From positions 358,856,001-358,920,000 of the forward strand of contig OZ024743.1 of NCBI GenBank assembly GCA_964016885.1: a DNA stretch of 64,000 nucleotides, written 5' to 3'. A program made the position numbers and the translations under genes. The notes below the pieces were generated by a model, which did no database searches, had not been told where the DNA came from, and saw only the letters and a program-made list of their open reading frames with translations. The first letter of the stretch is position 1; each line of letters starts with the position of its first letter. The stretch is from Eledone cirrhosa. Lineage: Eukaryota. Positions 14,168 to 62,700 of the stretch are shown here, piece after piece.

Positions 14168-14203
14168 TCTTCTGATGAAGGACTAGCGTCCGAAACGTTA
14201 AGA
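14168..14203 (+). ncRNA. Minimal type I hammerhead ribozyme (PLE pLTR type)
   Basis: tctt-CTGATGA-a-ggac tagc gtcc-GAAAC GT T-aaga; loopless palindromic stem III. Confidence 0.75.
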
Positions 14204-15457: not shown

Positions 15458-15493
15458 GTTCGACGTTTCGGACAGAAGTCCTTCATCAGGAGT
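15458..15493 (-). ncRNA. Minimal type I hammerhead ribozyme
   Basis: Reverse complement reads tc-CTGATGA-a-ggac ttct gtcc-GAAAC GT C-ga. Confidence 0.75.
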
Positions 15494-38438: not shown

Positions 38439-38474
38439 TTTTCTGATGAAGGACTGATGTCCGAAACGTTAAGA
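38439..38474 (+). ncRNA. Minimal type I hammerhead ribozyme, same family as 14168
   Basis: tttt-CTGATGA-a-ggac tgat gtcc-GAAAC GT T-aaga. Confidence 0.75.
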
Positions 38475-39514: not shown

Positions 39515-42300
39515 TACGTGGAGGGAGTATGTGGACGCTGGGTTTTTACTCCCAAAATGCATGGTGGTACACTTGTCCACATCTAGCTTGAGTTGCCAGT
39601 CTGTGATCCATTGTTGCATTGTGTCCAGGTCAGACTGCAAGCAAGATCTACAGTGTTCAGGATCTGTCCTTTTTATCTCAAGGTACAGCTTGATGTCATC
39701 TGCGTATTTCAGTACTGTGGCATTCTTTAAGTTGGCATCTATGTAATTAATATATGCCACAAACAAAAGGGGGCCAAGAACAGATCCCTGTGGTACACCA
39801 GATGACATCTAATATGGTGAGGAATGCTGTCCCAGAACCGTGACTACCTCTCTTCGACTGAGAATGAAGGACTTCAACCAGTTAAAAAGATCATCCTTCA
39901 CACCCATTGCAGAGAGTTTTGCCATAAGCATTTTGTGTGGCACATAATTGAAAGCTTTCGCAAAGTTAAGATAAACAACATCCACCCATGAGCCGCCATC
40001 AGTGATCCAGGTGATGTCTTCAAGAAACTCGATAAGTTGATCACAGCAGCTGGAGTTAGGGATAAATCCAAATTGCAAGGGCCGGATAAGACTGTGATAG
40101 TTCCAGAAGTTCCAAAGTGTTTCTCTGTCACAGGATTCTATCAGTTTGGCAATGCAACTAGTAAGACTGACTGGACGATAGTTGACAGGTGATGTGCGGT
40201 CACCCTTTTTGAACAGAGGAATGACACTGGCAGTTTTCCACTGATCTGGAGTAGCACCGTTGTTCAGACAGAATTGGATGAAGCGTGATAGCTGGTGCAG
40301 AAGGAGGTACCCACCTCGTTTAAGAAGCAGGTACGTAACACTATCAAGACCAGGAGAGGCATGGTTGCGTTTATTTTTAAGGTGACGTCGCAGCATTGCA
40401 GGTGTAAATTCGATGGTTGTAATAGAATCCGGTGTCATAGGTGGTGGAGACGGTACACTCTGGTCTTCAATAATGAAAATGCCTGCATAGCATTCAGCAA
40501 TGAGCTCTGCGCATTCCTTGGGGTCTTCAGTAACCTGGCTTGTGTGGGGATTGTGAAGAGGACCAACTGGAGAATGGGGCCTCTGCTTTGAGTGAACATA
40601 CTTCCAGAACACCTTACTGTCAGGGCTGGTTGCTATGCGCTGCTCAAATTGAAGCACTGCCTTTTTTGTCACCTGTTTGAGGTGGTTGGATGATTTATTT
40701 CGCCTCTTCCTATTGATGTCTGATTTATGCAGTTTGTACTCACGTTCAGGATTACGATGTTCTTTTCTGGCAAGACGGACTGCTGCAGTCTCCCAAATTG
40801 CACTTTTGGGATGTTTTTTCTGCTTACGTGGCATCGATGCTGCTCAGGATGTCCTGGAGTACAGTGTTGACATCTCCAGAGTCGTAGAACTCAAGCCAGT
40901 TTGGACCTTGCAACTTGGTGCAGTACAGTTCCAGTCTGCTTTATTCAGTCAAAGTGAGCAGTTTGGAGATGGTTGTGGTTTTTGTTACTGCCCATGAGGG
41001 ATAGATTGGCAATGATCATAGCATGATCAGAGTCACCTAAAGGTTCCTCAGTAACACTAATGACCGTTTCAGGAGTAGTGGTGAAGAGTAGGTCCAAAGT
41101 GTTGTCACCTTTTGTTGGGGAGATGACTACTTGGGACCAATTCGAGTCCAGCACAAGGAAGTCATTTGCACTTGGTGGCCAACAAAAGGTTTCCCAGTCA
41201 ACCTCAGGGTGATTGAAGTCCCCTGCAATAAAAGTGGCTGTTTTCCTGGCAGGAGCTCTGAGGATATCACACAGTTGAGTGTCCTGATGGTAATTTGGGG
41301 GACGGTAAACGACTCCAAGTAGCAGTGTTGACATGGTCATAGATCATCCAAAGACTTGCGCGAAGGGTGCTCTACGCCTTGGCCAACCAGGTCCGAAACC
41401 CAGGCTAATTAGGCTGTTTTTTCGAACTCAACTGAGGCACGTTCATACCTTGTAGCCTCTGATAAAGCTAGGCGTGAAAGTCGGATTGCTTTCCGAACAC
41501 GCCCTGATCTTCCACCTGATGTCCGCCCAAAGTTGCGTGCTGCAGCTTCCTTAAACCGCAGCTCAGCAGAACAAGAAAGCTTCAGCCTACGTGATGATGG
41601 GCAGATATGGAAGTTTATTAAGGCTGGTGAACCATGGAAAAGAGATACCAGCTGGTCTGAAAACACTGTACCCACAACAACTAACAATAAAAAAAACTGA
41701 AAAAACTCTGGGAAACTAAATCAGAACAACCTGCCATCCCCTGCACATAATCATATACTGGAATCAAGGTACAAATTGTTGTCCTTGAATGCACGCAGTC
41801 TATGCAATAAGATTCATATTGCAAATGCCTGAAGATCAACCATGTCTTCTGGTGCACCAATGGCAATCACCTCGTGGTTTGCAGATTCAGTGGCATTCTC
41901 AATGCGTCTAGATTCAACATGAGGTACGCGGAGATTTTTTAACAAGGTATTCCGGTAAGATCCCTCATTGTGAGGTTCTACACGAACGCTTGGTTTTATT
42001 CCCGCTATTTCTCGGCTTAAAGCGGAAATCATTTGCCGTATTTCCTCAAACTCCGTATTGACGGTCGATTTTTGTTGTTGTTCTCCTTCAACAGGCATGG
42101 TAGGGGAAGACACAGTCGTCGGTTGTTGTTGTTGAAAAGTAACGGGGGAGGAAGACATGGGTTGCTGTTGTTGATGATGTCCTTCAACGGGGGTAGTAGC
42201 AGAAGCTACGGTCGCTGGTTTTTGGTTTTTGGTTTTTGATGTTGTTCAGGAACAATGGTAGAGGAAGACACGATCTTCGATCCAAGTGTCTGCAAGTACA
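39515..42300 (-). mobile_element. Decayed CR1/L2-group LINE (ORF1, APE, RT) with an internal inversion
   Basis: APE motifs VYRPPN, GDFNHP, GDSDH; RT motifs NYRPVSLTS, YLNFAKAF, GVPQGSVLGP, KYADD; ORF1 RRM motifs. Confidence 0.9.
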
Positions 42301-51945: not shown

Positions 51946-52142
51946 GAAAAGTATAGAAATTATTGTGCGCAAGAAGCCAACAGTATTCCATGACCCTCCG
52001 AAAGTATAACAATATATACATATAATATATATATATTATATATATATTAACTCACGCGATATGAAAATTAGGCTGCTCAGCCGTTAATATGCATAAGGAA
52101 AGTATATACTTTCAGACGTTCAACCATCTGGCAGGCAGGTAT

Positions 52143-52185
52143 ACGTTGCTGACGATAGCTAATAAGCTTGAAACTAGTACAGCGT
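52143..52185 (+). ncRNA. Type I hammerhead ribozyme, array unit 1
   Basis: Intact core, 6-bp stem I, palindromic ACUAGU stem III. Confidence 0.85.
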
Positions 52186-52575
52186 TCCTTTGTCAGTGTT
52201 GAACAAATGAGCAACGATGGTTGCTAGACACTGTACGGCTTAATTCGGGATGTTTGTTTACAAACACACCGAGCATTATAATAAATGTTCGGTGAATCCA
52301 TACGTACATATATATATGTGTGCATGTATGTATATATATATATATACATACTACTGTACGTATGTATACATATATGTATGTACGTACACATACTTATATT
52401 TAAGTAACAGCCGTACTAAGAGTGAGAAATGAAATTTCGTTTCATTTTTTCCGTTTATCGTTTTCAGTACCCCGGCCGATTAACTCACTCGATATGCAAA
52501 TTAGGCTGCTCAGCCGTTAATATGCGTAAGGAAAGTATATACTTTCAGACGTTCAACCATCTGGCAGGAAGGTAT

Positions 52576-52618
52576 ACGTTGCTGACGATAACTAATAAGC
52601 TTGAAACTAGTACAGCGT
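52576..52618 (+). ncRNA. Type I hammerhead ribozyme, array unit 2
   Basis: As unit 1, with a stem II mismatch (taact). Confidence 0.8.
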
Positions 52619-53006
52619 TCCTTTGTCAGTGTTGAACAAATGAGCAACGATGGTTGCTAGACACTGTACGTCTTAATTCGGGATGTTTGTTTACAAACAC
52701 ACCGAGCATTATAATAAATGTTCGGTGAATCCATACGTACATATATATATGTGTGCATGTATGTATATATATATATACATACTACTGTACGTCTGTATAC
52801 ATATATGTATGTACGTATACATACTTATATTTAAGTAACAGCCGTACTAAGAGTGAGAAATGAAATTTCGTTTCACTTTTTCCGTTTATTGTTTTCGGTA
52901 TCCCGGCCGATTAACTCACTCGATATGCAAATTAGGCTGCTCAGCCGTTAATATGCATAAGGAAAGTATATACTTTCAGACGTTCAACCATCTGGCAGGC
53001 AGGTAT

Positions 53007-53049
53007 ACGTTGCTGACGATAGCTAATAAGCTTGAAACTAGTACAGCGT
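53007..53049 (+). ncRNA. Type I hammerhead ribozyme, array unit 3
   Basis: As unit 1. Confidence 0.85.
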
Positions 53050-53441
53050 TCCTTTGTCAGTGTTGAACAAATGAGCAACGATGGTTGCTGGACACTGTAC
53101 GGCTTAATTCGCGACGTTTGTTTACAAACACACCGAGCATTATAAAAAATGTTCGGTGAATCCATACGTACATATATATATATGTCTGCATGTATGTATA
53201 TATATATATATACATACTACTGTACGTCTGTATACATATATGTATGTACGTATACATACTTATATTTAAGTAACAGCCGTACTAAGAATGAGAAATGAAA
53301 TTTCGTTTCATTTTTTCCGTTTATCGTTTTCGGTACCCCGGCCGATTAACTCACTCGATATGCAAATTAGGCTGCTCAGCCGTTAATATGCGTAAGGAAA
53401 GTATATACTTTCAGACGTTCAACCATCTGGCAGGAAGGTAT

Positions 53442-53484
53442 ACGTTGCTGACGATAACTAATAAGCTTGAAACTAGTACAGCGT
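53442..53484 (+). ncRNA. Type I hammerhead ribozyme, array unit 4
   Basis: As unit 2. Confidence 0.8.
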
Positions 53485-53872
53485 TCCTTTGTCAGTGTTG
53501 AACAAATGAGCAACGATGGTTGCTAGACACTGTACGTCTTAATTCGGGATGTTTGTTTACAAACACACCGAGCATTATAATAAATGTTCGGTGAATCCAT
53601 ACGTACATATATATATGTGTGCATGTATGTATATATATATATACATACTACTGTACGTCTGTATACATATATGTATGTACGTATACATACTTATATTTAA
53701 GTAACAGCCGTACTAAGAGTGAGAAATGAAATTTCGTTTCATTTTTTCCGTTTATTGTTTTCGGTATCCCGGCCGATTAACTCACTCGATATGCAAATTA
53801 GGCTGCTCAGCCGTTAATATGCATAAGGAAAGTATATACTTTCAGACGTTCAACCATCTGGCAGGCAGGTAT

Positions 53873-53915
53873 ACGTTGCTGACGATAGCTAATAAGCTTG
53901 AAACTAGTACAACGT
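53873..53915 (+). ncRNA. Type I hammerhead ribozyme, array unit 5
   Basis: Stem I is fully Watson-Crick (acgttg/caacgt). Confidence 0.85.
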
Positions 53916-54241
53916 TCCTTTGTCAGTGTTGAACAAATGAGCAACGATGGTTGCTGGACACTGTACGGCTTAATTCGCGACGTTTGTTTACAAACACACC
54001 GAGCATTATAAAAAATGTTCGGTGAATCCATACGTACATATATATATATGTGTGCATGTATGTATATATATATATATACATACTACTGTACGTCTGTATA
54101 CATATATGTATGTACGTATACATACTTATATTTAAGTAACAGCCGTACTAAGAGTGAGAAATGAAATTTCGTTTCATTTTTTTTCCGTTTTTTATATATA
54201 TATATATTATATATATATATTATATATATATATTATATATA

Positions 54242-54614: not shown

Positions 54615-56199
54615 TGATCTCAACATCCTGGACCGGACCGAACCTCTGGACCCTATTTCTCCCCACTTTACCCTGAAGGATCACAAATCCAATTTTCCGA
54701 ACAACCCCTCCATTCGGCTTATTAACCCTACGAAGTCCGATTTAGGTAGACTTAGTAAAACGATTCTTGATAGAATTATACCTGAAATTAGAAGTTTGGC
54801 CCCTCTTGCACTGTCGAACAATTCTTTCGCGCTGATTGATTGGTTCAACGGCATATGTAACAAGGAACATTGCCGTTTTATCCAATTCGACATCAACAAT
54901 TACTACTCCTCCATCACTTTACTACTTCTCCTTAGAGCTATTAATTTCGATAAAACACTCACAGTGGTTAAGGATTTCGAAGTTGATGTCATCCTCAATG
55001 CCCGAAAGTCGGTGATTAATTTCGACGACTCTATTTGGATTAAAAAATCCAACAGTACCCTATTCGACGTGAGTATGGGCGCCAGTGATTCTGCGGAGGT
55101 TACTGATCTTATCGGCCTTTTCCTTCTTTTCTCTATCAAGGACGAATTCCCCAACGCGGGCGGTGGTTTGTACCGTGACGATGGTCTTTTGACCATGACT
55201 AAGTGCGGACCTCGTGCTTGCGACAGGTTCAGAAAAGAACTCACAGCCTTCTTTAAAGGCTTCAACCTTTCTATACAGGTTGAGGCCAATCTCTCGGTCG
55301 TTAATTACCTCGACGTTACCCTCAATTTATTGAATGGGTTGTATTACCCGTATGGAAAGCCGAATGATACGCTTAATTACATAAGTAAGCATTCCATCCA
55401 TCCTGCCAGCATAACCAAGAACCTGGTAAGAAACGTTTCGTTGAGGCTTTCCCGTCTTTCCACCAACGAGCGTATTTTCAACGACAATTCCACTTATTAC
55501 AATGAAGCTCTTGCTCGAAGTGGATTTGTCGATAAGGTAGCATATACAGAGTACGAAAATAGACCTAGAAGAAATAGATCCCGTCGCATTTGTTGGTATA
55601 ACCCACCATATAATATGGAGGTGGCCACACCATTAGCTAAGATCTTTCTTTCCCTTATTACGAAGCATTTTCCCCCTACACATAAGTATAGTAAAATTTT
55701 TAATAGAAATACTATTAAAATTTCTTACTCTACGACTCCTAACCTTGCACATAACATCACAGCTTCAAATTTAGCTAAACTACCTGGCCGTAGGAACACG
55801 TGCAACCCTGTAGTTAGTACTAAGTGTAATTGTAGCAATCGGGTTGATTGCCTCCTATCCGGGAAATGCCTCTCTAGTAACATTGTCTACAAATGTAAGG
55901 TTGTAACACCCACGTCCCGTAGGGCCTACATAGGGTTAACCGCCAATAGATTCAAGCAGCGTCTTTACATGCATACCCATTCTTTTCGTTACCCTCTAAG
56001 AAGGAATATGACGTCACTTTCAGCTTATATCTGGAGTCTAAAAGACAACCACACCCAATATAAGTTACACTGGGAGATCCTAGCTAGGGTTAGATCGTAT
56101 AACGGAAATAAAAGATCATGTGACCTCTGCGCCGTTGAGGCCCTGAAAATACTCTACGCCACAGACCACATCTTAAACAAAAAATCTGAGGCAATTTAG
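54615..56199 (+). CDS. PLE reverse transcriptase + Cys-rich linker + GIY-YIG endonuclease (N-terminally truncated)
   Basis: TLKDHK..RLINPTKSDLG, QFDINNYYSSI, GGLYRDDGL, NYLDVTL, WYNPPY, KCNC..CLLSGKC..IVYKC..YIGLT..RF..H, CDLCAVE. The true frame starts after the TA tract. Confidence 0.9.
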
Positions 56200-57192
56200 G
56201 CTTGTAAACATAAATTGCACAAAACTTTCCTGTATTACAGCCCCACGTTATACCCTAACGGATAGTACGATTTATACGTGGATATTTTACGTCTTGATGT
56301 GGGAGCTAAGTATATGTTTTGTTTATACCATTACTTATTTGCATAGGCAAGTATATATTACCCGTATGTTTTGTGAAGGTACGTATACCTTCTCGTACGT
56401 ATATTTGATTGTTTATATTATGGCGTATAATTTTATATATTTTGGTACATATGGTTTGGCTATGTGTATACGGGAGTTTTGCGTCTGTGTGAGTATGCAG
56501 GTTCGTACGTATGTAGGGTGTGTGTATATGTGTACTTCATGTTTTAGTTGACTTACGTCTCCGAACATTCGTGTATTTACATGTAGGTATGTGTGTGCGT
56601 TTGTTATATACGTATTTATTTATTTATATACGTTTATATAATTATTTATTTATTTGTAAACACGCATACACACACACATATTTATATTGCGTGGTTTTGT
56701 ATACCGATGGTAAGTGTCCTGCGTATGCTTGTGTATGTACGTATTTGTTTGCGTGTATGCATTTATTTATTTCTATTACTTCTGTATTGTATTTATTTAC
56801 TTTGTTCTTAACTCTGTAGCAGAGATTCATTTGGTCTCCTGGTTAGAATTTTAGTCTACGACTTCTGCTATACCATTTACGTCGTTTTGTCTTTGCGTGC
56901 TATTGTTCTCTACATATGACGTATTATCTTCGTTTTTTTCGTTCATTGCCAGAGAACGTCTCTATGAACCACCTAAGAGAACATTAGTCTACGACCTCTT
57001 TTATACCATAAACGTGGTTCTGTCTTTGCGCGTAATTGTTTTTCACTGCTCCTATTAATTACGTATTATATTCGTTTTTTTCCGTTCTTTGCCAGCGAAC
57101 ATTTCCACGAACCAAAGTATCGTCTTCCTGTCTTCCTCCGGTTGCAACGTTTTTTGAAATATCCACTTCTGCGTTTACAGATTGACTTTGTT

Positions 57193-57243
57193 AGTTTCAG
57201 AAGATCCCGTTAAGGGTGAAAGCAGCGATTCTTTGCTTAAACT
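57193..57243 (+). ncRNA. Hammerhead-like motif with a variant core CAGAAGA (family B)
   Basis: agttt-CAGAAGA-t ccc gttaa ggg t-GAAAGCAG cgattct TTGCTT-aaact; the same core is at ~6091. Confidence 0.55.
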
Positions 57244-57428
57244 TTAATCTGTTATTTTAATAAATATTTGCTCTACGGTTCTTATATATTTGATATATAT
57301 TTATCCTTATCGAGCCCTCTTTGGATTTTAGTCTTCAAATTTATTATTATTACTATATATAAATATATATATATAAATATATATATAAATATATATATAA
57401 TTATATATATATATAAATATATATTATT

Positions 57429-57461
<33 letters not shown>

Positions 57462-57559
57462 AATATATATATATAATTATATATATATATAAATATATAT
57501 TATTATATATATAAATATATATATATATATAAATATATATATAATTATATATATATATT

Positions 57560-57592
<33 letters not shown>

Positions 57593-57768
57593 AATAATAT
57601 ATGAATACACACACGTATACATATGTATATGTAACAAGTCTTTCACTGGTTGCTTTACTGTGAGCACCCAGCTATTCTGTATGTAAACACACAGACAAAC
57701 CGGTTTTTAGAGTCATACTGGTTTTTGAGGGAACACCTTCCCTCTATTCTCCAGAAAGCCAGACAAGG

Positions 57769-57813
57769 AATATTGAACTAGTTTCGTTGTTGTTACAACT
57801 CATCAGCAATATT
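57769..57813 (-). ncRNA. Type I hammerhead ribozyme (inverted copy)
   Basis: Exact reverse complement of 57962-58006. Confidence 0.85.
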
Positions 57814-57961
57814 TACCTATCTACCGGCCCTTCTGGAGAATTGTAAAAGCACATATCGTTATATGCTTTTTCTATGAAAATTAGTAGTGGGCAGACTAAT
57901 TTGCATAGAGTGTGAGTACGCACCGGTTCAGCGGAGACGATAAAAACAAATGACGAAACGA

Positions 57962-58006
57962 AATATTGCTGATGAGTTGTAACAACAACGAAACTAGTTC
58001 AATATT
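57962..58006 (+). ncRNA. Type I hammerhead ribozyme
   Basis: aatattg-CTGATGA-gttgt aaca acaac-GAAAC ta GTT-caatatt; perfect 7-bp stem I. Confidence 0.9.
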
Positions 58007-58430
58007 CCTTGTCTGGCTTTCTGGAGAATAGAGGGAAGGTGTTCCCTCAAAAACCAGTATGACTCTAAAAACCGATTTGTCTGTGTGTTTACATACAGAA
58101 TAGCTGGGTGCTCACAGTAAAGCAACCAGTGAAAGACTTGTTACATATACATATGTATACGTGTGTGTATTCATATACACACTAGTATTTCAGTATGCAT
58201 ATGTAGATGTAATTTTTTTAAACTTAATTGTTTAAGCGTCAGTCATACAAAAGTGAGTTACAAACGAAACGAAATTTAATTTCGTTTCGTCATTTGTTTT
58301 TATCGTCTCCGCTGAACCGGTGCGTACTCACACTCTATGCAAATTAGTCTGCCCACTACTAATTTTCATAGAAAAAAGCATATAACGATATGTCCTTTTA
58401 CAATTCTCCAGAAGGGCCGGTAGATAGGTA

Positions 58431-58475
58431 AATATTGCTGATGAGTTGTAACAACAACGAAACTAGTTCAATATT
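58431..58475 (+). ncRNA. Type I hammerhead ribozyme
   Basis: Identical to 57962-58006. Confidence 0.9.
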
Positions 58476-58800
58476 CCTTGTCTGGCTTTCTGGAGAATAG
58501 AGGGAAGGTGTTCCCTCAAAAACCAGTATGACTCTAAAAACCGGTTTGTCTGTGTGTTTACATACAGAATAGCTGGGTGCTCACAGTAAAGCAACCAGTG
58601 AAAGACTTGTTACATATACATATGTATACGTGTGTGTATTCATATACACACTAGTATTTCAGTATGCATATGTAGATGTAATTTTTTTTAACTTAATTGT
58701 ATAAATATATATATATATATATAAATATATATATAAATATATATATATATAAAAATATATATATAATTATATATATATATATATAAATAAATATATATAT

Positions 58801-58837
<37 letters not shown>

Positions 58838-59026
58838 AATATATATATAAATATATATATATAAATATATATATAAATATATAAATATATATATATATAA
58901 ATAAAAATATATATATAAATATTTCCTCAGGGAAATAACAACCCAACCAGGAACTGGGCATATCAGAGTATTGACAAAGCTAAACACCTCAACAACACGT
59001 GTACTCGTCTTACCACACTAATTCGG

Positions 59027-59729: not shown

Positions 59730-62700
59730 ACAATGGACAAACACAACAAAAACAACAACAACAACAGCCACAACAACAGCCACGACAACAACAACAGCAA
59801 GAAAGCCAGGAGCAACCACTACTGAATTCAAGCATAATCGCTGAATTACTAAATGACAGTATCACTCAGCCACTCACTCAGCCATCATTATCGCCATCAC
59901 CATCACCACCGTCACCATCTCCTGCAACACCTACACCTTCTGCCACACCAACTGCTAGTAATGGACCACTGCTCTCTCTCCCACCACAGTTGTCATCATC
60001 ATCATCACCACCAATGCTTTCTTCCCCCACATCACCACCATAGCCATGCCATAGTCAAAAGAACTATAAAAAAAAAGTTCTATGGAGCTGTATGCACCTC
60101 CCACTACACATACTAGAAACCCCAAATATGCCGCTACTCACTACGCCAGAGGCTATGCACACGTAGCGACTGTATACACCCATTTACCCATTTACCAGGT
60201 ACTAGGCGCCCTAACACTGCCAGCCATCACCAAAGCCCGCTGCCTGCACGTATAGGTCGCAGTCCCAAAATCTGCCATCATTCCCAACGTGAGAGGCTAT
60301 GTCTGCTGACTGACTGTCCCTTCACTCATCTTCCTGGGACACAACGCACGAACAGAAAAGGGGCTTCATGCCAACCCACAAACCACAATAAAGCCACCCC
60401 CTGCTGCGGTAATGTTGCTCCAGTCTCCTCACAAAGACATGATTACAACGACAAAAGTAATGCTGCTCCAGTCTTGTCACAAAGACACGATCACAACAAC
60501 AACAAATACAACAACAAAAATAACGCTGCTCCAGTCTTTTCACAAAGACACAATTACAACAAATACAACAACAACAACAAAAGAGGGAACTGCAACCCTA
60601 TCCAATGTTGTAACCACAAATCCAATCAAAAACTGCTCCCTGAACAAAAAGAAAATCTTCCTTTTTTAGCCATGAACCTGGCAAAAGAGATAGAGAAAAA
60701 CATTTTAGCCATCACCCAACACCAACCTTGCTGTCAATAACACACAATCACAAAACAAGCCCCCTGCAACAGTCAAAACCAGCCACCAGCCTAGCCTCCA
60801 CATTCTTACTCAATACACAATGTATCAGCCCATCCATCAATGCACAGAAATGGAAGATCCAATTCATTGAGGATTGGGTTGGTAACCATCCATTTCACAT
60901 CCCCTTCTTCATTCTTACTGAGACCCACCTTGACAACTCCCACTTGGAGGCCGAAGTAAGAGTGAGAAATTTCACAACCATCCGTGCGGATCGTGTTGGC
61001 AGAAGGAAGGGTGGAACTGCCATTTTCCTGCATGATTCCTTTACGGCAGATGGCAACACAACATTCTCTAATGGATACTGTGAATCAGTCACTGTGCACA
61101 ATAAAGCCAATGACCTGACATTAGTTGGGCTCTATAGGCCGCCACAAACACCCATTATCTGTTTCAAAGAATGCCTCAACAGTATTAAATGCTTTATTAA
61201 ACAGTGCCATTCTAGCAACATACTTTTGATGGGAGACTTTAATCTACCCTGTGTCGATTGGTCTACATGTAGTTTGAAACCAGGCTCCACAGCCTCAACC
61301 ACTGACAAAGAGGCTGTCGAGTCACTTCTTGACTCCATGAATGAGTTTTTCTTGTCTCAACTTGTCCTTGCACCAACGAGGCATCAGAAGAACATTCTGG
61401 ATTTAGTGTTTAGTAACCACACTAACACTATACATAATATTACAGTGGAAAAAACCCTTCTCTCAGGCCATGACATGGTTATTTGTAACCTGAGATTCCA
61501 CCAGCCGAAAGCTAATCCCAGGGTCCTCTCTCCAGCCCACCCATTTGATAACATGGATCTCTACAATGCCAACTGGGATGCAATTATGAACGAACTATCA
61601 CATGTCGACTGGTCTTTTACACACGTACACACTTCCACCAACATCAAAACATCTTGGCAGATCTTTGTAGACACTGTCACAAATATATGTACAAAACACA
61701 CCCCTACCAAAACCTGTGAAAAAAACCAAGTGCAGTATCCCCCAAAACAGAAAAACAATTATCAGAAAAATAAAAAGAACAAACAAAAAAATTAACACAC
61801 TAAAATACTGCCAACAGCAACACACACATTCAATGACTATCACCCTGCTTGAGTCAAACAAATATAACCTCCAGCAATGCATGATGACCATCATCAATAA
61901 CCAAAGAATAGCTGAAGAGAGGTGGGCCATTGAGAAAATCAAACTCAACCCCAAAGTGTCATTCGCTAAAAACACAAGGTCACCGTCTCCACTGTTGCCC
62001 CCCCTCCCTATTTGATGAACATGGCACACTCCAGGACAATGCCAAAACCATGGGCGAGATACTGCAGAAACAATACTGCTCTGTTTTCAGCAACCCTGAT
62101 ATGGCCGATCTGGGCCGTATCAGTGATATTAACCCCCAACACACTATATCAGACATAACGTTTGGCGCGCGCCCCTGATGTCTTAGCGGCAATAAACGAA
62201 ATTAAACACAATTCAGCAGTAGGCCCCGACAGGTTCCCTGCTTGTGTCCTGAAGGTGTGTCGACACCAACTTGCAACTCCTCTTGCTAATCTGTGGAGGA
62301 ACTCACTGGCTATATTCCTGAAAACTTTCTGTCCCAGTCCGTTGTCCCAGTCTTCAAAAAGAGAAATAAGTCCCTTGCAGTGAACTACCGTCCGATCTCA
62401 CTCACATCTCATATTATCAAGGTATTTGAGAGGGTGGTGAGATCACGAATAACCCACTTTCTTGAAAGCAACGGCCTGCTGAACTCCAACCAACATGGGT
62501 TCCGTAATGGCAGGGACTGCCTAACGCAGCTCCTGCATCACTTTGACGATGTTTTGAGATCCTTGGGAGAGGGCTCCAACACTGATGTCATCTACGTTGA
62601 TTTCAGCAAGGCCTTCGACAGGGTTGATCATAAGATTCTACTGAAAAGACTATCCAATGTTGGTGTCTCTGGAAGGTTACTACAGTGGATCAAATGTTTC

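Follow-up and report, generated by a model that had tools for sequence, protein, structure and literature searches.

The window analysed here is a stretch of 64,000 nucleotides (nt) of the Eledone cirrhosa genome (GenBank assembly GCA_964016885.1, 3.0 Gb; contig OZ024743.1, positions 358,856,001 to 358,920,000 of the forward strand). Between positions 57598 and 58704 of this window lies what is very probably a single insertion of a non-coding tandem repeat, with a unit of 469 nt and a type I hammerhead ribozyme motif, likely made by a Penelope-like reverse transcriptase (RT) and endonuclease acting in trans on the repeat RNA. The insertion is likely a "retrozyme" in a young copy, with 1.6 head-to-tail units and a mirror-image partial unit set in a TA microsatellite, and it is preceded in the window by a truncated copy of an abundant element with an open reading frame (ORF) and by an array of a related 433-nt hammerhead repeat (Table 1). 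Positions within the unit are counted from the predicted ribozyme cut, with q1 at 58000 and q1-469 corresponding to 58000-58468.

The insertion and its hammerhead motif

Once reverse-complemented, the inverted arm (57598-57964) matches 58279-58646 except for one mismatch and one gap in 368 positions, and the direct arm contains a 275-nt direct repeat (57961-58235 and 58430-58704) with three differences between its copies. A preliminary description of this DNA placed the start of the direct part at stem I of the hammerhead and had it joined to an inverted partial unit; both points hold, as the direct arm starts at 57961/57962, with stem I (AATATTG) at 57962-57968, and the arms (57961-58704 and 57598-57964) share the bases AAAT. 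The arms abut directly at 57961-57964 with no (TA)n between them, and a 32-mer spanning this junction occurs a single time in the genome. The inverted arm breaks off where the palindromic hairpin of the unit (27 nt) has its apex, a point absent from the preliminary description. The unit has the non-coding character and the low GC content (below 45-50%) of retrozymes (GC 35.8%; longest stop-free stretch in a trimer, 60 codons). Contigs of two independent runs (X1 and X2) switch to (AT)n at 58303, and a run labelled as another organism contains a 223-nt piece with six differences.

Table 1. Features of the insertion and of its upstream surroundings, by position in the window (TRF, Tandem Repeats Finder; UTR, untranslated region).
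Feature	Position	Strand	Basis or remark
433-nt hammerhead repeat, 4.9 units, single arm	52046-54182	+	TRF period 431; ends just past its own hairpin on (TA)n
5'-truncated copy of abundant ORF element (RT and GIY-YIG), between (TA)n blocks	54640-57353	+	ORF to 56199, then 3' UTR
Left TA-rich microsatellite flank (target)	57354-57602		TRF periods 12/14/26; TATATAAA-type variant common to right flank
Inverted arm, 367 nt, q280-469 then q1-178	57598-57964	-	Outer end q178 (CATATA), non-canonical
Inverted-arm hammerhead	57753-57824	-	Rfam HH9, 38.6 bits, E 4e-8 (861-nt search)
Head-to-head junction AAAT, common to both arms	57961-57964		Inverted-arm hairpin apex joined to first stem I bases of direct arm
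Direct arm, 744 nt, q431-469 (39 bases), full unit 58000-58468 and q1-236	57961-58704	+	Ends at canonical upstream site (AACTTAATTGT) on (TA)n
Hammerhead 1, type I	57962-58006	+	Sequence; Rfam HH9, 29.9 bits; predicted cut U57999/C58000
"Tail" segment between canonical arm ends q~235 and q304, contains hairpin	58237-58303	+	Arm ends of parsed loci
Palindromic hairpin ACGAAACGAAAT-TTA-ATTTCGTTTCGT	58265-58291	+	Self-match in both orientations; 12-bp stem in folds; kept in 433-nt family
ATGCAAAT octamer within the unit's least variable block	58337-58344	+	Block q334-352 with 0.5% mismatches vs 2.9% overall; common to 433-nt family
Hammerhead 2, type I	58431-58475	+	Rfam HH9, 38.6 bits; predicted cut U58468/C58469
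Right TA-rich microsatellite flank	58700-58922		TRF

The core CTGATGAGTTGTAACAACAACGAAAC is present in three identical copies, at 57781-57806 on the minus strand and at 57969-57994 and 58438-58463 on the plus strand, which confirms the earlier report of three identical hammerheads, two of them on the plus strand 469 nt apart and one on the minus strand. The pattern CTGATGAN{6,30}CGAAAC matches six times in the window against 0.02 matches expected. All three copies contain CUGAUGA, GAAA, the A15.1-U16.1 pair and a U at the predicted cut site; stem I (AAUAUUG/CAAUAUU) has 7 bp, stem II (GUUGU/ACAAC) has 5 bp with the loop AACA, and helix III consists of 2 bp and a UA loop inside the palindrome ACUAGU. 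The alignment to the Rfam HH9 model spans its full length, with three helices and helix I open. Animal type I hammerheads, in the available part of Cervera & de la Pena 2014 (PMC4209133), have a short palindromic helix III, and a second copy is thought to be needed for activity; the canonical metazoan forms have the same 2-bp helix III and 2-nt loop within ACUAGU and are predicted to be active as dimers in tandem transcripts, whereas the motif described here is set apart by its helix I of 7 bp, its helix II of 5 bp and a score below the HH9 gathering threshold. In a cofold prediction the homodimer forms a 6-bp ACUAGU helix and is 3.4 kcal/mol better than two monomers, and the monomer RNA is predicted to be strongly self-paired (-151.7 kcal/mol, z -9.6).

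Pairing and covariation were assessed in an alignment of 40 distinct hammerheads from the window and from fetched loci, covering the 469-like and 433-like families. The core columns are invariant except for position 7, which is U or C, and 92.7% of the cells are paired, compared with 27-51% when the partners are slid. Changes on both sides are found at 7 of 14 stem pairs, with stem II variants such as GUUGU/ACAAC, GAUGU/ACAUC (from a 466-nt array variant) and CAGCU/AGCUG, so that the covariation of stems I and II, offered in the preliminary description as support for the fold, is borne out by a structural alignment of both families. Across 197 units of the 469-nt family, the ribozyme motif has 0.6-0.7% mismatches to the examined unit, compared with 2.9% for the entire unit, making it 4-5 times less variable.

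The repeat family across the genome

BLAST finds at least 217 matches to the 469-nt unit with 90-100% identity; they are spread over many contigs and belong mostly to tandem arrays. The pattern CTGAYGAN{10,16}GAAACTAGT occurs 40,282 times in the genome versus six times in a reversed control. Like retrozymes, the family consists of short tandem repeats with a type I hammerhead in each unit and many dispersed copies. An exact search for the post-hairpin end at q304 followed by (TA)n returned 2,016 occurrences, and the internal continuation of the same sequence returned 6,486 (control 0 for both). About 50 independent loci were parsed with BLAST, and in 30 of them, including the locus examined here, a minus arm precedes a plus arm in head-to-head arrangement. 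The 3' ends of arms almost always adjoin (TA)n, and the 5' ends of single arms often do not. At the examined locus and at the 29 other two-armed loci the insertions display 5' truncation, a partial tandem and an adjacent inverted 5'-truncated copy, and an AT-rich or (TA)n target is seen at both flanks here and at nearly all outer ends elsewhere.

The outer ends of the arms fall at two fixed sites, a precise one at q304 and a fuzzy one near q235 (q229-238), which lie ~69 nt apart, the length of the tail. Two canonical outer ends are found in 23 of the 30 two-armed loci, and 22 of these 23 pair an end at q299-305 with an end at q225-238 (the chance of at least 22 heterotypic pairs at 50:50 is ~3e-6). 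A single two-armed locus is of the 304/304 type, and the remaining 7 of 30, including the examined locus (q178/q236), have one odd end. Three further heterotypic loci (L053, L092 and L095), with arms too short for BLAST, were judged by eye. Contig C1 up to 67.9 Mb served as an unselected stretch. Of the 45 q304 ends listed for it, 31 could be matched by eye to a diverging end of the q235 type less than 15 kb away and another to one at a distance of 16.9 kb; clear pairs of the 304/304 type were absent. A genome-wide pattern count of q235-type ends (AACTTAATTN{0,6}TATATATATA) is uninterpretable, with a control as high as the signal and sites counted repeatedly.

Both arms of a locus trace to one event, because their divergence (2.04%) resembles that of units within an arm (1.57%) and lies below that of units from different loci (3.96%). 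At the examined locus the arms differ by 0.55% over 546 nt, and the longest arms in the family contain ~30 units (L106/L107). Where the arms meet, the junctions of the 30 loci overlap by 1-4 nt in 16 cases and by 9-13 nt in four, have no overlap in one, and contain 1-18 nt of filler in nine. The 60 junction ends are scattered over the whole unit. Five of them lie at q426-440 compared with 1.9 expected (P 0.04, for an interval picked post hoc), none at q441-469, three at the hairpin apex (q278-280) and three at q314-318. Tests for hot spots among the 60 ends were not significant for the hairpin (6 versus 3.7 expected), the cut site at q1-6 (3 versus 1.4) or q312-320 (3 versus 1.15). The preliminary description had tied the switch between arms to the ribozyme boundary; with junctions found throughout the unit, 5 of 60 at q426-440 and the examined junction unique in the genome, this survey does not sustain the link as a rule, and the coincidence of junction and ribozyme boundary is at most a mild preference.

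Two further observations concern the ends of arms. The 5' ends recur at q314-319 (L039, L011/L059, L017/L060, L034, L040 and L052), 10-15 nt past q304 and just before the block containing ACTCAC and the octamer, and may mark a transcript start. One two-armed copy (L080; G000:C1:57514-60543) lies in a GAT microsatellite, with mutually inverted flanks and odd ends at q159 and q230, and may be a fold-back product rather than an instance of the usual pattern.

Related repeats and a neighbouring element with an open reading frame

The 433-nt array upstream starts at approximately the equivalent of q326. The block order that the preliminary description saw in both families is indeed common to them (TTCCTT after stem I, the 3' half of the hairpin, GTTTATCGT, ACTCAC, ATGCAAATTAG and GAAACTAGT); 256 of 477 alignment columns are identical, and BLAST aligns the two at 62-64% over ~335 nt. 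The accompanying statement that stems I and II differ entirely while still pairing overstates the difference: double-sided changes are found in 3 of the 7 pairs of stem I and in 4 of the 5 of stem II, and in the 433-nt family the first pair of stem II is a U.U mismatch. The core of that family has C at position 7, and in some units another pair of stem II is mismatched as well. A third hammerhead-like core (CTGATGA-A-GGAC..GTCC-GAAACGT) occurs in the window at 14172-14196 (+), 15465-15489 (-) and 38443-38467 (+). One additional unpaired base precedes its stem II, loop 3 is absent, and a microsatellite lies within ~100 nt downstream of each copy. It has the layout of the "minimal" hammerheads reported from Penelope-like elements.

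The ORF element between the 433-nt array and the insertion belongs to a family with 89,006 first-look candidates, of which 83 were scored; these are 94-100% identical and include many open frames of 713 amino acids (aa) and some longer ones. An intact ORF of 709 aa beginning with ATG is present in one copy (L065), and intact frames of 709-713 aa are found in many genomic copies. An AlphaFold model of the protein, built from 20 sequences (pLDDT 88.7, pTM 0.84), has its best fold match in the telomerase TERT (3du5_A, E 7e-9), followed by DRT, retron, group II intron and LINE-1 RTs. A GIY-YIG domain scores above the Pfam cut-off in a 41%-identical relative and was found in only 2 of 20 aligned relatives, and the neighbours of the protein in the Atlas carry RVT_1, HTH_animal, DUF8422 and GIY-YIG. 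A TERT-like RT with a C-terminal GIY-YIG domain is the defining trait of Penelope-like elements (PMC11167929; also stated in the available part of PMC8557442). The ORF proteins of the window and of L065 had no Pfam match, and a phmmer search of the PDB with the ORF protein had none; a profile search returned only two weak, unrelated prion protein matches (E 0.06 and 0.12), hhalign gave 0.2% probability for a relationship with the LINE RT fragment of the window, and a cluster look-up yielded no names.

Copies of the ORF element have two alternative 3' ends 93 nt apart (57267 or 57356-57360 in the window), and in all five readable copies an inverted upstream arm bears the other 3' end, with (TA)n outside. 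The 469-nt family coexists, as retrozymes do with Penelope-like elements, with this abundant ORF family, which has a predicted TERT-like RT fold and GIY-YIG in its relatives, and the ORF element is a candidate source of the copying enzyme. At another locus (L035; G000:C11:2118300-2123200) the left flank shows the 3' end of the ORF element (…tcttcaaatttattattattac), then (TA)n and then an insertion of the 469-nt family, as in the window, an arrangement that may be either a recurring adjacency or a duplicated segment.

Copying route, alternatives and other features of the window

In the available parts of two reports (Cervera & de la Pena 2020, PMC7229834; Li, Clavereau & Pollet 2026, bioRxiv 10.64898/2026.07.22.740005), animal hammerhead tandem repeats are described as non-long-terminal-repeat (non-LTR) retrozymes linked to Penelope-like elements: they are AT-rich, have type I hammerheads, are expressed as circles and are probably moved by those elements. 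The 469-nt family resembles them in being AT-rich, non-coding and tandemly repeated, with a unit of a few hundred bases that includes a type I hammerhead, in many copies and alongside Penelope-like elements; its unit length of 469 nt exceeds the 170-400 nt of PMC7229834 and falls within the 51-972 bp of 10.64898/2026.07.22.740005. In a word search, the main texts of these two sources contain no description of head-to-head arms, a (TA)n target or two fixed ends; "inverted" and "microsatellite" are not used in the main text of PMC7229834 and are used once each in that of 10.64898/2026.07.22.740005, neither time for a retrozyme insertion. According to the available part of Craig et al. 2021 (PMC8557442), Penelope-like insertions lack 5' sequence and form partial tandems, often next to an inverted copy that is itself 5'-truncated and with a tail on one side, and in some clades they favour (TA)n. 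A purified Penelope-like enzyme (Frangieh et al. 2024, PMC11167929) cuts AT-rich DNA and extends both strands from two internal start sites in a stem-loop region, with a spacing equal to the tail. The insertions of the 469-nt family share with these systems the 5' truncation, the partial tandems, the inverted 5'-truncated neighbour, the AT-rich or (TA)n target and, at the level of the family, the one-end tail and the two internal sites flanking a stem-loop; extension of both strands would be a further likeness. They differ from them in having no ORF and a tail of 69 nt rather than 30-40 bp. The family fits the known behaviour of retrozymes and Penelope-like elements, and the rule of one start site per arm, seen in vivo at 22 of 23 loci, goes beyond the in vitro report, in which start sites showed no strand difference (PMC11167929).

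The preliminary description proposed a retro-copied multimer with a Penelope-style 5' inversion, and this proposal is supported by the dispersed, 5'-truncated, tandem family abutting (TA)n, by the 29 other head-to-head loci and by a neighbouring RT/GIY-YIG element of the same architecture. In such a route, the enzyme would make cuts in the two strands of a (TA)n microsatellite, and the 3' ends released in this way would each prime cDNA synthesis on the retrozyme RNA, one end normally just past the hairpin (q304) and the other ~69 nt upstream (q~235); in the examined copy, the second start would instead have been made at CAUAUA (q178) through microhomology with the TA primer. Both cDNAs would proceed towards the 5' side of the RNA and, on a template that is multimeric or circular, would extend beyond a single unit. 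Their end points would vary, lying in this copy at the apex of the hairpin and at the hammerhead's 5' edge, and a few bases of microhomology (AAAT) would join the two cDNAs into a direct and an inverted arm. The hammerhead, probably as a dimer, would cut multimeric transcripts into 469-nt monomers, which a host ligase could circularise. On this account, the examined insertion is an ordinary, slightly irregular product of the retrozyme copying process. In L1 twin priming, both target strands reportedly prime on the RNA, giving a 5' inverted and 3' direct structure with a microhomology join; compared with that, the second priming site here appears to be fixed rather than arbitrary, the template would be a multimer or circle, and the enzyme would be a GIY-YIG/TERT-like RT. 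A more tentative idea, less likely than not, takes the near-obligate use of two different start sites, one for each arm, by both the retrozyme and the resident ORF element as a trace left in vivo by a Penelope-like enzyme acting as a dimer, which would grip one RNA by its hairpin and prime both cut DNA ends on it simultaneously at the two hairpin-flanking sites. If true, the protein-free retrozyme would be a natural minimal substrate defining what the poorly understood Penelope-like class recognises.

Explanations in which the two arms have separate origins, or in which RNA plays no part, have little probability. Two independent insertions of the same family in opposite orientations into one microsatellite would draw on (TA)n being a strong target, and the window does hold the 433-nt array, the ORF element and the 469-nt element side by side; however, the arms abut through four shared bases with no (TA)n between them, their difference of 0.55% compares with 3.96% between loci, and the pairing of q304 with q235 ends in 22 of 23 loci is unexpected from independent events, making such a double insertion highly improbable. 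A rearrangement of a satellite array at the DNA level, by hairpin fold-back replication or microhomology-mediated template switching, is about as improbable. It would be in keeping with an inverted arm whose break coincides exactly with the apex of a palindrome of 27 nt and shows a microhomology of 4 nt, and the inverted flanks of L080 suggest that fold-back occurs, but a fold-back product is truly palindromic, its outer ends being the same and its flanks inverted, whereas here the apex is joined to q431 and the outer ends are q178 and q236, and the dispersed copies, in their thousands, end on (TA)n at fixed 3' sites and vary at the 5' side. Least probable of all is that the inversion is an assembly artefact at the repeat, given that the architecture is repeated, with junctions of their own, at the 29 other parsed loci and is seen again in the ORF element, that the arms carry small differences of their own and that the junction shows ordinary microhomology. 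In favour of an artefact, Penelope-type tandem and inverted structures trouble assemblies (available part of PMC8557442), and among the contig pieces listed (runs X1, X2, X4 and X5; short, high-depth), none spans the 57964 junction.

If the insertion was copied from RNA by a Penelope-like enzyme, its template may still have been a long linear read-through transcript of a genomic array instead of a ribozyme-processed circular monomer, and we give the linear template somewhat less than an even chance. Ribozyme cleavage is dispensable in vitro, where most of the substrate is unprocessed RNA (PMC11167929), the units of one arm diverge from each other by 1.57%, and the recurrent arm 5' ends at q314-319 (L034, L040 and L052; single arms L039, L011/L059 and L017/L060) could represent a transcript start. 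On the other hand, arms reach ~30 units and stop points are found throughout the unit, 3 of 60 junction ends and the single arm L045 lie at the predicted cut site (q1-6), and variation within the unit is lowest in the ribozyme.

Several observations weigh against the reading of the insertion as a hammerhead retrozyme copied by a Penelope-like enzyme. The scores of the three hammerheads (38.6, 38.6 and 29.9 bits) fall below the Rfam gathering score of 52 for HH9, a scan of the whole window at gathering scores found no hammerhead match, and the covariation is drawn from few lineages (469-like and 433-like). The examined copy itself departs from the two-site rule, with an inverted arm ending at q178 instead of q304 and a direct arm ending canonically at q236, and its junction is the one that none of the listed contig pieces spans. 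With the purified enzyme, start sites did not differ between strands and insertion did not require ribozyme cleavage (PMC11167929). The description of the ORF protein as a probable telomerase-like RT derives from its predicted fold. MAFFT alignment of the 3' end of the ORF element with the retrozyme 3' regions was not convincing and revealed no shared sequence, a regular-expression search for a hammerhead in 11 copies of the element found only scattered, non-conserved matches, and an Rfam search at E 0.1 of three copies found none; because of this lack of a shared 3' sequence and of a detectable hammerhead, the ORF element stays a candidate partner.

Ribozyme-bearing tandem repeats are common in animal genomes, and the route by which they are copied is still argued from indirect evidence. 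The 469-nt family provides thousands of young insertions with directly readable ends, junctions and targets, and the match between these insertions and the behaviour of a Penelope-like enzyme in vitro strengthens the proposed link between retrozymes and Penelope-like elements. The family also yields a testable rule, a single start site for each arm, and this two-site rule is the part of most experimental worth.

Among other features of the window, hundreds of sub-threshold Rfam "microRNA" matches (mir-3149, mir-297 and others) were set aside as composition artefacts on TA and CA microsatellites, far below gathering scores. An RVT_1 ORF at 39809-40843 (-) was considered as a partner for the retrozyme and rejected, since by its motifs it looks like a LINE fragment. 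LINE-type fragments in the window comprise this ORF and an endonuclease/exonuclease/phosphatase ORF at 60644-61795 (+).

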